Positions 4,406-7,805 of a stretch of 64,000 nucleotides of DNA are shown piece after piece. The notes below the pieces were generated by a model. That model searched no databases, was not told the DNA's origin, and saw only the letters and a list, made by a program, of their open reading frames with translations. Position 1 is the stretch's first letter. Each line of letters opens with the position of its first letter. The stretch is from Spirochaetia bacterium. GTDB lineage: Bacteria; Spirochaetota; Spirochaetia; UBA9216. Position numbers and translations under genes: made by a program. The stretch lies in NCBI GenBank assembly GCA_965140585.1, contig OZ223264.1, positions 416,001 to 480,000 on the forward strand. Reading direction: 5' to 3'.

Positions 4406-5695
4406 CTATATTAACGAAAGAAATATCTCCGCCGGAATGTATTCAGGAAACAGGTTTCCCGGTGTTTTGAAATTATTCAGAACAAGAGCATATTCGTAGG
4501 GTGTGAATTTTTCCTTCTCTCGCTCTGTAATAAAAAGACTTATTGCATTACCTATCTTTGTAAAAAACGATTCCGATTCCCCGTCTGTCGGCTTGCTGAC
4601 GCTCTGTTTTATTTCGGCATATTTAGCTTTGATGGTCTCAATCAGTTCCTTGAACGTATAGAGTCTGTTTCTCTCAATATCAAGCGATGCCGCAGCCGCG
4701 TCGATCAGGCAGTATATAAGATCCTTGTGAAATTTCTGTTCCGGCGGAAGGGTATTGCGGATAAGTATTTCGATGTTTTTTTCGCTGATTTTTTTTGTTT
4801 CATAATCCAGCAGATGTGAGTATTTCTGAACATTCTCCATGTCGAACAGTTTTCTGGTAAGATTTTCTTCAAGGTGACGATCAGGCTTAAAGAAGTAATT
4901 TATACCTTTGACTTTATCAAATACCTTAAGGGTATCCAGGTAGCCGATGTTTATATTTCTTTCAGCGGAATTGGGATCGAAGTCCAGTATTCCTCCCAGG
5001 TCCATGGAGTTTTTAATGTAGATTGTATCAGTGCCTGCAATGTCAGGTCTCCTGTTTACTCCGAGACCGGAGATGTCCACGACAATGATTTTTTTGTATC
5101 CTCGGTGCTTCATCATACGGTGCGGTATGTTATCCCAGATACCGCCGTCGGCGTATTTTTTACCATTGATCTCGGCGTTTTTGAAAACCGCTGGAATTGA
5201 TGCGCTTGCAAGCAGGTAGTCGGGCAGGGTTCCCGGCTCCATTGCATCGAGAAATATCTCTTTTGAAGAAAGGCTGTTGACCTCAACCGTGACTATGCCT
5301 AGGTCTCTGCCTGATTTTCTGATGTCGTCTTCTCTGATGGTTTCTTTTAGCATCCTGTAAAGCGGGGCTGTATCAAGTCCGAGGTTGCGGATATCCAGAT
5401 TGAGGTCCGATATTCGATTGAATGCTTTGAATGAGAATTTGAGTTTGCCGTTTTTAAGCATTCCCTCAGGTACTCTGATTATCCGTTCAAGGGTCATCTC
5501 TGTCCAGAGTTTTATTCCCAGCTCATATTCGTCCTGGGCTATTATTGCTGCATTGAGTGCTCCGACTGATGTCCCTGCAACTGCGTTTACTTCTATCTTA
5601 AGTTCTTTCAGAGCCTTCCATGCTCCAATTTCATATGCCCCTCTCGCGCCGCCGCCGGCAAGGACTAAACTGTATTCTGTTTTTTTATCAAACAT
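4406..5695 (-). CDS. Patatin-like phospholipase
   Basis: GGGARG, GTSVG and DGG motifs. Confidence 0.92.
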   Translation of the reverse strand: MFDKKTEYSLVLAGGGARGAYEIGAWKALKELKIEVNAVAGTSVGALNAAIIAQDEYELGIKLWTEMTLERIIRVPEGMLKNGKLKFSFKAFNRISDLNLDIRNLGLDTAPLYRMLKETIREDDIRKSGRDLGIVTVEVNSLSSKEIFLDAMEPGTLPDYLLASASIPAVFKNAEINGKKYADGGIWDNIPHRMMKHRGYKKIIVVDISGLGVNRRPDIAGTDTIYIKNSMDLGGILDFDPNSAERNINIGYLDTLKVFDKVKGINYFFKPDRHLEENLTRKLFDMENVQKYSHLLDYETKKISEKNIEILIRNTLPPEQKFHKDLIYCLIDAAAASLDIERNRLYTFKELIETIKAKYAEIKQSVSKPTDGESESFFTKIGNAISLFITEREKEKFTPYEYALVLNNFKTPGNLFPEYIPAEIFLSLI

Positions 5696-5712: not shown

Positions 5713-5742
5713 AATATAGGCTCCTGTGAAAGGATTGTCAAT
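5713..5742 (-). promoter_or_regulatory. Sigma-70-type promoter of the patatin gene
   Basis: Minus strand TTGACA-N17-TATATT. Confidence 0.6.
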
Positions 5743-5775
5743 CAAAGAAATTTGTTCGGCCGCCGGGTTGAGTTT

Positions 5776-5813
5776 TGGCCACGGATGTGTATAGGGTTTG
5801 CGCACAGCAGCGA
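5776..5813 (+). repeat. Left copy of a 38-bp imperfect inverted repeat (partner at 18540-18577)
   Basis: TGGCCACGGATGTGTATA is an exact 18-bp match to the reverse complement of 18560-18577; 33/38 identity over the full length. Confidence 0.85.
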
Positions 5814-5860
5814 ACTTGTATAGGGCTTGGGCAGGGCGGTGATTAGTGGGAGTAAGAAAG

Positions 5861-5986
5861 GCCTCCTTCAGTCCTTATATTTTACATCCCGTTTACAGGA
5901 ATTCAAGGGCAAGGTGAAAACGGCTTTGCCGTTCCCTTGAGTTCCTGTAAAGCGGGCCTGTGGTATAACTGAAAATTTCAGGAGGT
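5861..5986 (+). promoter_or_regulatory. Long imperfect hairpin enclosing the -35/-10/SD of the GxxExxY gene (Frpo-like ssDNA-promoter candidate)
   Basis: 5892-5909 pairs with 5934-5951 (18 bp, one G-T); CCCG/CGGG; TTATA/TATAA; TCAG/CTGA; GCCTCCT/AGGAGGT; inner AACGGC-ttt-GCCGTT hairpin. Confidence 0.65.
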
Positions 5987-5992
5987 ACGCAA

Positions 5993-6355
5993 ATGCTGTA
6001 CAAAGAATTAAGTTATCAAGTCATCGGCGGCTGCATGGCAGTTCACAAGGGTCTGGGGCCTGGGCTGCTTGAGCAGTGTTATCACAATGCATTGTTTTAT
6101 GAGCTCCGGGCTGCAGGCTTGGGTGTCGGGTATCATGTACCGTTTAATGTTCATTACCGTGGGCAGGTTGTGGGGGAGTATTTTGCAGACCTGGTTGTAA
6201 ATAATACTATTATTCTTGAATTAAAATCAGTAAAGGCAATTAATGACAGCCACAAGGCACAGTTAATTAACTATCTGCATATTAGCGACTGTCGTGTGGG
6301 TTACCTGCTTAACTTTCAGGGCTTGCAGCTTGAATGGCAGCGCCTGGTTATTTAG
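5993..6355 (+). CDS. GxxExxY protein (PD-(D/E)XK-like, PDDEXK_3)
   Basis: GPGLLEQCY, ADLVV...ELKSV and QLINYL motifs; strong SD. Confidence 0.92.
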   Translation: MLYKELSYQVIGGCMAVHKGLGPGLLEQCYHNALFYELRAAGLGVGYHVPFNVHYRGQVVGEYFADLVVNNTIILELKSVKAINDSHKAQLINYLHISDCRVGYLLNFQGLQLEWQRLVI

Positions 6356-6663
6356 AATCCGGTGAATAGAAGGTCAATCGCGGAAGTTACCTCGGTTCTG
6401 AGATGTGAGAGATTGATAATACAGTCACCTAAATAATGGATGGGAATGGCGGCCATTTCTGAAATGAAGGCAATATACGGCTGATTATTTATTTCAATTT
6501 CTATATGAATTTTGCTGATGTATTGACTTTTAGTATTTACGGCTTTTCGTAGAGGAGCAACGATACGTGTTGCAAGTTCGGAGATTTCATCCGCTTGCAG
6601 GATTATTAGATATTCTACATCTTTGGTATTGTTCTTATTAATAACTATATCAAATTGCCCCAT
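6352..6663 (-). CDS. ccdB: CcdB family toxin
   Basis: MxQFD start, LATRIVAPL and C-terminal AIDLLFTGF; lies downstream of ccdA with a 1-nt overlap. Confidence 0.8.
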   Translation of the reverse strand: MGQFDIVINKNNTKDVEYLIILQADEISELATRIVAPLRKAVNTKSQYISKIHIEIEINNQPYIAFISEMAAIPIHYLGDCIINLSHLRTEVTSAIDLLFTGF

Positions 6664-6881
6664 TAAAATGGTCTCATCCCGTCGCTGAATACACCATTTT
6701 TGTTTATCTGTTCATTGTATGCTTCTATGCTTTGACGGTTTTCTTCTTCCCATTCCTTTTTTTTGATTTTTGAAAGCTCCTTTTTTAAAGCCTCTTCAAG
6801 TATTTGAGAAAGAACAAGATTGTGCGCCTTTGCCGCCTCAAATATCTCATTCTGTATTGTAACGTTTGTTCTAGTTTTCAT
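6663..6881 (-). CDS. ccdA: CcdA family antitoxin
   Basis: KTRTNVTI ribbon-helix-helix start; WEEENRQSIEAYNE...GVFSDGMRPF is the typical CcdA C-terminus. Confidence 0.88.
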   Translation of the reverse strand: MKTRTNVTIQNEIFEAAKAHNLVLSQILEEALKKELSKIKKKEWEEENRQSIEAYNEQINKNGVFSDGMRPF

Positions 6882-6916
6882 GTGTATATAATAACACATT
6901 ATATGTGTGCATGCAA
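6882..6916 (-). promoter_or_regulatory. ccdAB promoter with palindromic operator
   Basis: Minus strand TTGCAT-N17-TATTAT-6 nt-ATG; ACACAT-tat-ATGTGT palindrome (6894-6908) in the spacer. Confidence 0.6.
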
Positions 6917-7061: not shown

Positions 7062-7805
7062 TTACTTCTGAGTATATTTACAATTGGGATAGTTAGAACA
7101 TCCATAAAATCTACCATATTTCCCATTTCGCTTAATTAAACGGCCACCACATCTGGGGCAGATGAGTAGTTGTTTCTTCTTTTCTCGGATATACAAGGTG
7201 TTATTAACGTTATAGATATGCTCAACATCTGCATGTTTTTCATGGATTCTGGCTTGATTGATTCGATTTACTACTTTCTCAAGATTATCAATACATATAT
7301 CATGTTGTTTACTTATAGATTTTATAACTGTTTCCAGTTGATGTTTGTATATGACAGGTGTTGCTGTAGTAACATTCTTTAATTCACCACTACCTACAAA
7401 GACTACGATAGGAAAAAAGGTAATGCCTTTAAAATCGCTTAGAACCTCTTTTAAGGCGTAGATGTGTGCCCAGTTCTGTTTGACAGGGTTAACTAACTGA
7501 TATTTACTCTTGTAGAAAGTTTGAGTCCAGTGCTCTGAGTTTTCATGACCATGAATCCAACCTCTATAATTTTTGGTTTCAATAACAAAAATGCCATATT
7601 TTGAGACTACTACATGGTCAATTTGGCTACTTCCTCTGCTTGTTTGAATAAGAACATCGTTTAGAATTGTATATTCATTCTGATTGAGTTTATACAGTTG
7701 GCTTGCTACTTGTGATTCCCCAGCCTTGCCTTTATAGTCAGCACTTTTAAATAGAAATGGAATAATCAGAATAATTAATAAAATGATTGCAATTAAGAAG
7801 ATCAC
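7062..7805 (-). CDS. NERD nuclease-related domain protein with N-terminal TM and C-terminal topoisomerase C4 zinc finger
   Basis: GKAGE, QIDHVVVSKYGIFVIETKN and NPVKQN motifs; CPRCG...RNGKYGRFYGCSNYPNC. Confidence 0.9.
   Translation of the reverse strand: MIFLIAIILLIILIIPFLFKSADYKGKAGESQVASQLYKLNQNEYTILNDVLIQTSRGSSQIDHVVVSKYGIFVIETKNYRGWIHGHENSEHWTQTFYKSKYQLVNPVKQNWAHIYALKEVLSDFKGITFFPIVVFVGSGELKNVTTATPVIYKHQLETVIKSISKQHDICIDNLEKVVNRINQARIHEKHADVEHIYNVNNTLYIREKKKQLLICPRCGGRLIKRNGKYGRFYGCSNYPNCKYTQK

Follow-up and report, generated by a model that had tools for sequence, protein, structure and literature searches.

The 64,000-nucleotide (nt) stretch of spirochaete DNA analysed here (contig OZ223264.1, positions 416,001 to 480,000 of the forward strand; hereafter the window) carries a small nuclease-fold gene of the GxxExxY family, and directly upstream of this gene lies a long imperfect fold-back at 5861-5986. 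The fold-back is real and goes well beyond chance. It is one copy of a module of ~140 nt that lies directly upstream of GxxExxY (PF13366) genes in Spirochaetia and that, judged by alignment, is conserved, gene-linked and covarying. The aligned copies also indicate that the module has one conserved sigma-70 promoter, which is a minus-strand promoter located in the sequence complementary to the 5' arm. By the same comparison, a conserved promoter on the plus strand, the strand of the gene, is absent. We propose that the module combines a single-strand promoter of the Frpo type with a structure that would bury the Shine-Dalgarno (SD) sequence of the gene in read-through RNA. To this combined reading, which rests on sequence, we give a probability of about 0.4.

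The fold was computed over 5855-5995 for both strands, as DNA and as RNA. The plus strand reaches -33.1 kcal/mol as DNA (z -7.28) and -60.3 kcal/mol as RNA (z -7.57), and the minus strand -31.7 kcal/mol as DNA (z -6.26) and -52.0 kcal/mol as RNA (z -5.39). For each of these forms, none of 200 shuffles matched the native fold energy. An initial annotation of this DNA had described such a hairpin, and folding bears it out on both strands and in both molecules (z -5.39 to -7.57). The motifs it had read on the two arms, TTGAGT, TGGTATAAC and AGGAGGT with their three partners, are all present in the sequence where it had placed them (Table 1), and TTGAGT and TATAAC are 21 nt apart, as it had counted. 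In the fold, an anti-SD pairs with the SD as the outer stem. The core stem has 4 + 18 pairs with a single bulged G (5952) between them, and a 6-base-pair (bp) hairpin forms the apex.

The hairpin sequence is unique in its own genome by BLAST. Its build is shared: 4/4 full-length PF13366 paralogues of this genome are preceded by a hairpin of matching build, and most PF13366 paralogues of related genomes likewise carry one upstream. Read 5' to 3' on the gene strand, the module starts with a CCTCC-like anti-SD, a T-run, CATT(T/G)TAC, a variable stem arm and GT(C/A)AAGG. A conserved unpaired stretch of the CAAGG type follows, then a variable apical hairpin and CCTTGAC. The second stem arm, which has one bulged G, leads into a variable stretch, an A-run and the SD, with the ATG 5-7 nt further on. 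The G of TTGA in the 3' arm is retained even where the 5' arm has an A (GTAAAGG variants). At 5910-5918 and in the homologous columns, the unpaired CAAGG-type stretch duplicates the stem box (TCAAGG GCAAGG; in locus L024, TCAAGG TCAAGG). Because this stretch repeats the stem box, CCTTGA of the 3' arm could pair in two registers, and a conformational switch is possible.

A covariance model was built from A1, a MAFFT alignment of 17 modules. It found five matches in the own genome, all five abutting PF13366 matches. At the level of the family it gave 31 matches in 9 of 11 genomes, every one of them within ~100 nt of a PF13366 match by coordinates (31/31), and at the level of the class it matched in 17 of 151 genomes, which belong to several families. 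Run over the collected loci, the model returned 55 matches. Four were opposite-strand echoes of the palindrome, which leaves 51 modules, and 46 of these have a PDDEXK_3-like frame within 420 nt downstream. The remaining five are two identical copies with an IS21-like gene, one copy before another small open reading frame (ORF) and two with little downstream sequence. No gene-less copies of the module were found in the own genome or in the family at the covariance-model thresholds used. On this ground, and because the hairpin is unique by BLAST, a dispersed repeat like the REP (repetitive extragenic palindromic) or MITE (miniature inverted-repeat transposable element) kind was rejected.

The module appears to be a spirochaete feature. 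Among 80 GxxExxY-family loci from many phyla, the model matched six, all spirochaete. The non-spirochaete loci of this set have CACGAAT- or CACAGAT-type repeat arrays that lie upstream of the gene or themselves form an upstream hairpin, and inspection by eye found no independent 'wrong-strand' promoter in them. Repeat-array loci thus resemble the spirochaete loci in having CACGGAT-type arrays beside the gene and differ in that a promoter-bearing fold-back between arrays and gene was found only in the latter (6/80). Rfam gave no family match, the best being a generic hairpin match to mir-3718 (29.5 bits, where the gathering score is 78). Neither Rfam nor the papers searched on the GxxExxY/PDDEXK_3 family describe the module.

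The stem covaries strongly. RNAalifold predicted 22 pairs on A1, and 17 of the 22 have changes on both sides. Paired cells make up 84.9% in A1 against 67.5% in column shuffles (0/500 as high), and double-change cells number 73 against 27.3. When the partners were slid by 1-3 columns as a control, 35-53% of cells were paired. Covarying hairpins upstream of GxxExxY homologues, for which the annotation had proposed to look, are present in the own genome and in its relatives. Counts given out of 43 refer to a set of distinct copies, from which the four echoes, duplicates and six copies with large indels (L081, L048, L066, L079, L054:190-386 and L045) had been removed. Over these 43 modules the 22 pairs give 946 cells: 715 are Watson-Crick, 60 are G-T, 24 are A-C, 124 are others and 23 are gaps. 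Of the 60 G-T cells, 24 sit at one column that is equally readable as a bulged G. The SD is the base of the hairpin in every module, and its pairing with the anti-SD is better within than across modules, at -14.25 kcal/mol for cognate and -11.98 kcal/mol for non-cognate combinations (0/5000 permutations, n=40; eight modules without an adjacent SD were left out of this test). Between the window and its orthologue in the same genus, ~10% of module positions differ, at a synonymous divergence (dS) of 0.25.

The best-conserved sequence of the module is situated in the 5' arm and has the form of a promoter on the opposite strand. In the window the minus-strand promoter is TTGAAT-16-TAAAAT at 5906..5879. 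The pattern TT[GT]Ann-N15/16-TAnnnT is present on the minus strand in 41/43 distinct modules, with a spacer of 16 nt in 27 and of 15 nt in 14, and the minus-strand TAnnnT falls at one alignment column in 41/43. A stricter promoter scan, which asks for 9 of 12 positions, scores at the identical position in 28 of 50 modules. T1, A2 and T6 of the minus-strand -10 hexamer are invariant columns of A1.

The plus strand was searched for a promoter that would face the gene. There is no sigma-70 site on this strand in the window between 5600 and 5992. Across the modules, the search ran from the ATG back to 150 nt ahead of the module and found a site in 10 of 50, at scattered positions of which none is conserved. 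By eye, no extended -10, sigma-54-like or extracytoplasmic-function (ECF)-like motifs were seen on the plus strand. TATAAC, which the initial annotation had taken as the -10 of the gene, is TGTGCC in the same-genus orthologue, the closest one, and no TAnnnT recurs at that place. Its proposed -35, TTGAGT, turns out to be simply the pairing partner of the conserved minus-strand box.

The arrangement of the minus-strand boxes is the one that transcription of a folded strand would call for. Since RNA polymerase moves along its template in the 3' to 5' direction, its only way out of a folded single strand is along the 5' arm. The 3' arm is then the non-template arm and needs its -35 near the loop and its -10 near the base. 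The 3' arm of the minus strand, which is the complement of the plus-strand 5' arm, holds TTGAC-16-TAnnnT with the -35 loop-proximal and the -10 base-proximal. The 5' arm of the minus strand leads on through the complements of the SD and the ATG into that of the gene. The box order on the 3' arm of the template strand is thus as a single-strand promoter needs it (window 5906..5879; 41/43 modules), the direction being derived from first principles.

The initial annotation, read literally, had the plus strand fold instead, with TTGAGT and TGGTATAAC of its 3' arm as the promoter of the gene. Both boxes are indeed there in the window, and the fold pairs them. By the same first principles, however, a folded plus strand templates only leftward, so that its product would be a minus-sense RNA into the left flank and not the gene. 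A spacer of 21 nt and the loss of the -10 in the closest orthologue, where none is conserved at that place, count further against this literal version, which we regard as scarcely credible. The general idea of a promoter rebuilt on folded single-stranded DNA survives as the best fit found; the boxes and the strand do not.

We envisage the combined action of the module as follows. In duplex DNA, the gene would be without a promoter of its own, and the minus-strand promoter would fire outward. In any RNA that reads through from outside, the whole hairpin would fold and the SD would be buried. If the minus strand, the template strand of the gene, became single, it would fold, and its 3' arm would provide the non-template -35, paired and on the loop side, and the -10, in a half-open internal loop. 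The 5' arm of this folded strand would serve as a template that runs on into the SD, the ATG and the gene. A start 7 nt past the -10 (non-template ~5872) would lie opposite plus-strand ~5968 by pairing, which would place the start of the gene mRNA at ~5968. An mRNA starting there would have a 5' untranslated region of ~25 nt with a free SD, and it would lack the anti-SD. On return to duplex, the same promoter would again fire outward and the gene would be off. An SD-burying mRNA structure and a single-strand promoter may, in this way, coexist.

Folding of the minus strand with DNA parameters gives mean pairing probabilities of 0.83 for the -35, 0.77 for the spacer, 0.38 for the -10, 0.59 for the next 6 nt and 0.64 for +1..+12. 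The low pairing of the -10 is partly trivial, this box being A+T-rich. With the same parameters, the minus strand is the more stable strand in 34/43 modules, by a mean difference of 1.26 kcal/mol.

In duplex, the minus-strand promoter points left, away from the GxxExxY gene. A terminator-like site within 260 nt along the outward direction was found in just 4/48 loci. At its start, the predicted leftward RNA has an SD-like motif, which is the anti-SD read on the other strand; after this motif, a start codon is present in 13/50 modules and a frame of at least 30 codons in 6. In the window, the patatin gene on the left has a strong promoter of its own (Table 1). These scans indicate that the outward promoter has no conserved ORF or terminator as its product in duplex. 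Read-through, in turn, is not a general source of transcription for the gene, since the nearest upstream ORF is divergent in 23/48 loci (co-oriented in 25, by a crude ORF call) and a terminator-like site lies upstream on the gene strand in 9/48.

Single-strand promoters have been described in plasmids. Those of IncF and IncI1 plasmids, the Frpo1, Frpo2 and ssi elements, fall into classes 1-3 (Masai and Arai 1997, cited in PMC9849209; also PMC11541004, PMC12672017). Hairpins of the Frpo type are described there as rebuilding the -35 and -10 on the transferred template strand, driving early genes and going off after duplex conversion (PMC9849209, PMC11541004), and the start sites of the three classes are reported as confirmed by 5' rapid amplification of cDNA ends (RACE; PMC12672017).

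The spirochaete module is like Frpo and ssi in being a long imperfect hairpin directly upstream of a gene, formable on the template strand of that gene, with boxes on the arm that is non-template only after folding. The expected outcome, gene expression from single-stranded DNA and silence in duplex, is also shared, as a prediction in the case of the module. The two differ in several ways. They have no sequence similarity, and the module, at ~125-140 nt, is shorter than the Frpo2 region of plasmid F (~300 nt or more). The module is chromosomal and not part of a leading region adjacent to an origin of transfer (oriT), and it stands upstream of a small nuclease gene and not of ssb, psiB or ardA. 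Its hairpin base includes the SD. Finally, one strand carries both of its boxes, contiguous and normally spaced, which means that the duplex module should itself be a good promoter, firing outward. On the transferred strand, the region of plasmid F upstream of ssb (NC_002483, L101) has a good fold (z -5.95). By analogy, the module would follow Frpo-type logic, mirrored with respect to the initial assignment of strands, in a chromosomal and non-conjugative setting.

Other known elements share parts of this design. In the fold-back inhibition of IS10 and IS50 and in the stem-loop of the insertion sequence (IS) IS200 that occludes the ribosome-binding site, an upstream inverted repeat pairs with the ribosome-binding site, and transcripts from outside go untranslated. 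In RNA long enough to include both repeats, the upstream repeat of the module likewise pairs with the region of the ribosome-binding site. The difference is that these elements have a resident plus-strand promoter between their repeats, whereas the only conserved promoter of the module faces outward. The ORF-bearing intervening sequences of 23S rRNA have a gene of the same family (PF13366 / TIGR04256). Integron attC sites resemble the module in being imperfect hairpins with extrahelical bases and a variable apex, and attC acts as a folded single strand. They differ in that the module ends in anti-SD and SD, with no R-box (GTTRRRY) seen in the alignments, lies 5' and not 3' of the ORF and has dispersed copies that are not in cassette arrays. 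Identity with attC was rejected on these grounds, after reading of the module ends for GTTRRRY.

Several observations weigh against a single-strand promoter. The strand preference of 1.26 kcal/mol is small, and the test overstates it, the sequences being related. With RNA parameters neither strand is favoured (the plus strand folds better in 21 and the minus strand in 27 of 49). The locus is ordinary chromosome with housekeeping neighbours. Relaxase or type IV secretion domains were not found in the first 26 kb, and there was no blastn match to 72,556 plasmid records at E 0.01. To our knowledge, all proven single-strand promoters lie in conjugative leading regions, next to oriT. Of the five module copies in the own genome, three are on the leading strand by GC skew, so there is no bias towards the lagging strand; exposure at the replication fork was rejected as a general trigger on this count, and uptake, transfer or resection would be required in its place. 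The contiguous-box scan finds nothing in the true Frpo2 region of plasmid F. Being blind to that element, the scan is no detector of a true Frpo, and a likeness to Frpo in box layout is not established. The excess of G-T over A-C cells in the plus sense leans slightly towards a plus-sense structure, and the pairing of anti-SD with SD is most simply a feature of the RNA. There is also a plus-strand TAnnnT without a -35, which uses the same TA as the minus-strand box and is present in 28/43 modules; the window lacks it (TACATC).

Some of these observations would suit a leader that works in RNA only, after the pattern of fold-back inhibition in IS10, IS50 or IS200. Its plus-sense hairpin would bury the SD in outside transcripts, possibly with cleavage by RNase III. 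The gene's own transcripts would start inside the module, for example at the weak -35-less TAnnnT, and so would come without the anti-SD, and the outward promoter would serve some other purpose, for instance antisense RNA or insulation. The covarying anti-SD:SD pairing fits such a leader, as do the very stable plus-strand RNA fold (-60.3 kcal/mol, z -7.57), the 60 G-T against 24 A-C cells, the TAnnnT at one column in 28/43 modules and a chromosomal setting, in which single-stranded DNA is rare. The plus-strand box, however, has no -35 and is missing in the window and in the orthologue alike (TACATC), and a conserved plus-strand promoter is absent. The plus strand is not favoured even with RNA parameters (21 against 27). 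A near-consensus outward promoter without a conserved product as the best-conserved sequence of the module is left unexplained. We consider a leader of this kind possible, with considerable doubt. Part of it had been foreseen in the initial annotation, which named as its alternative an mRNA structure that blocks translation from read-through transcripts; the covariation of anti-SD with SD supports that structure, which is also one half of the combined reading proposed here.

The module could instead act as a DNA site, with the promoter incidental. A single-strand hairpin or a cruciform would then be the substrate or docking site of the PD-(D/E)XK nuclease, or would serve recombination of the cassette. 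The strict linkage of module and gene suits this idea, and so do the conserved extrahelical G and one-sided bulge, the equal ease with which either strand folds, the repeat blocks that flank some cassettes and the nearest folds of the protein (Cas4, lambda exonuclease and Hjc resolvases). It would leave unexplained, however, why TAnnnT and TTGAC are invariant at promoter spacing and why the SD is paired. The absence of gene-less copies at the thresholds used also speaks against it, and paralogues within a genome are old (dS saturated) and give no sign of recent movement. We judge a DNA site to be improbable. An operator palindrome, in which a regulator on inverted TCAAGG/CCTTGA boxes would control a divergent promoter pair in duplex, could account for the near-invariance of TCAAGG and CCTTGA and for the CAAGG-type repeat conserved alongside. 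Such an operator would have no need of pairing along ~55 nt per arm that covaries in unconserved sequence. Moreover, the distance from box to box varies with the apical hairpin, and the plus-strand promoter that it should control is absent. This makes an operator very improbable in our view, and the two DNA-level explanations taken jointly are still unlikely.

The combined reading, with its single-strand promoter, has a wider form that we put forward only tentatively and think somewhat doubtful. The modules may constitute a chromosomal, spirochaete-wide family of single-strand promoters, the first outside conjugative plasmids, and would restrict synthesis of the nuclease to times when its own DNA is single-stranded. 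If so, expression would occur on uptake or transfer of the cassette, or on resection at a break, and would be silenced once the DNA is duplex. GxxExxY proteins would then be nucleases of an 'entry-only' or 'damage-only' kind, such as homing-type enzymes that assist the cassette in establishing itself. Single-strand promoters would extend beyond the leading regions of enterobacterial plasmids to chromosomal selfish cassettes in another phylum. More of them could then be sought by a simple signature: a covarying hairpin with its base at the SD whose 5' arm contains a consensus promoter on the 'wrong' strand. The GxxExxY/PDDEXK_3 genes form a very large family with many copies in many phyla, and a control module that holds the gene silent in duplex and may turn it on from single-stranded DNA offers a concrete and testable indication of when the nuclease is at work. 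Should the RNA-level explanation alone hold, the module would still be a structured element of ~140 nt, strongly covarying and not previously described.

The gene itself is a clear member of its family. Its product matches PF13366 with E 7.6e-39 (133.1 bits, cut-off 22) and TIGR04256 with E 3.4e-40 (137 bits, cut-off 35). Across 20 paralogues E27, Y30, E76 and K78 do not vary and D66 hardly does, and the GxxExxY and D...ExK motifs are thus present. The ratio of nonsynonymous to synonymous change (dN/dS) is 0.08-0.40 in the four pairs, out of 10, whose dS is unsaturated, and by this measure the gene is under purifying selection. The AlphaFold2 model (mean predicted local distance difference test score 95.8) has a minimal PD-(D/E)XK fold. 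The nearest structure is Cas4 SSO0001 (E 1e-4, TM 0.59), followed by lambda exonuclease and Hjc resolvases; no relatives of solved structure were found by sequence. One survey (PMC3424549), the only one found, gives the function of the GxxExxY family as 'Unknown'. The literature searches turned up no work dedicated to the family, and the mentions found were incidental.

Table 1. Positions in the window of the fold-back, the GxxExxY gene and their neighbours
Feature	Position	Strand	Basis or remark
Patatin gene, divergent	4406-5695	-	ORF list, family match
Promoter of the patatin gene itself, TTGACA-17-TATATT	5741..5713	-	Promoter scan; outside the module
Upstream block	5777..5853	+	Begins GGCCACGGAT, G-rich thereafter
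Anti-SD GCCTCCT	5861..5867	+	Outer stem with SD 5980-5986 (folds)
TTATA, 5'-arm partner	5875-5879	+	Sequence
Conserved -10 TAAAAT	5879..5884	-	Promoter scan and alignment column
Promoter spacer, 16 nt	5885..5900		Also the 5' arm of covarying stem P2
Conserved -35 TTGAAT	5901..5906	-	Within the 5' arm of stem P3 (TCAAGG)
TTCAAG, 5'-arm partner	5902-5907	+	Sequence
Unpaired 5'-side bulge, conserved, CAAGG-type repeat	5910..5918	+	Alignments, folds
Apical hairpin, 6 bp and 3-nt loop	5919..5933		Sequence and length variable across modules
P3 3' arm CCCTTGAGT	5934..5942	+	TTGA invariant; includes TTGAGT 5937-5942 (-35 of the initial annotation)
P2 3' arm	5943..5963	+	Conserved bulged G at 5952
TGGTATAAC	5961-5969	+	3' arm; contains the -10 of the initial annotation
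TATAAC (-10 of the initial annotation)	5964..5969	+	Unconserved; predicted start from the folded minus strand ~5968
Shine-Dalgarno AGGAGGT	5980..5986	+	AGGAG invariant in alignment A1
ATG of GxxExxY gene	5993	+	
GxxExxY / PDDEXK_3 gene, 120 amino acids	5993..6355	+	PF13366, TIGR04256
CcdB/CcdA pair, convergent	6352-6899		Starts at the GxxExxY stop codon
NERD-zinc-ribbon gene	7062-7805		After CcdB/CcdA

The wider flanks of the locus hold phenylalanyl-tRNA synthetase and transporters. The orthologous locus of the same genus (L039) has the patatin left flank in common with the window, and the two diverge ~15 nt past the GxxExxY stop codon. The two genomes therefore differ by insertion or deletion of the islet of CcdB/CcdA and the NERD gene. 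A terminator-like hairpin, GTTCGGCCGCCGGGT with a T-rich tail, lies on the plus strand at 5754-5778, with the patatin promoter on one side and the block that begins GGCCACGGAT on the other, despite the divergent orientation of the gene on the left.

Blocks of short repeats of the CACGGAT type lie left of most modules and sometimes recur right of the gene as a direct repeat. In L021 (G000 contig 9), a block of ~52 nt starting GGCCACGAATT is present on both sides of module and gene, in direct orientation and with ~3 mismatches. L040 and L036 have direct flanking blocks of the same kind. The blocks of these three loci may be cassette boundaries or the footprint of recombination. Directly downstream of the GxxExxY gene, L040 and L036, which are from two related genomes, also have an ORF whose N-terminus looks Cas3-like. 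In many loci, among them L087, L088, L100, L077, L086, L060 and L062, the CACGGAT/CACTGA-type arrays form a full palindrome, forward and then inverted, that adjoins the module on its left side. RNA made leftward from the module promoter would cross this palindrome.

A few loci depart from the usual arrangement of module and gene. L087 and L097 (G102) have identical module copies and 1.5 kb of identical left flank, with an IS21-like transposase ORF replacing the nuclease gene downstream; an IS was probably inserted into the cassette and the composite then duplicated. In L022 (G000 contig 5), three near-perfect small hairpins stand in tandem between the module and the gene, and the gene is without an obvious start codon. 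The same three hairpins are kept in L046, where the module is lacking.

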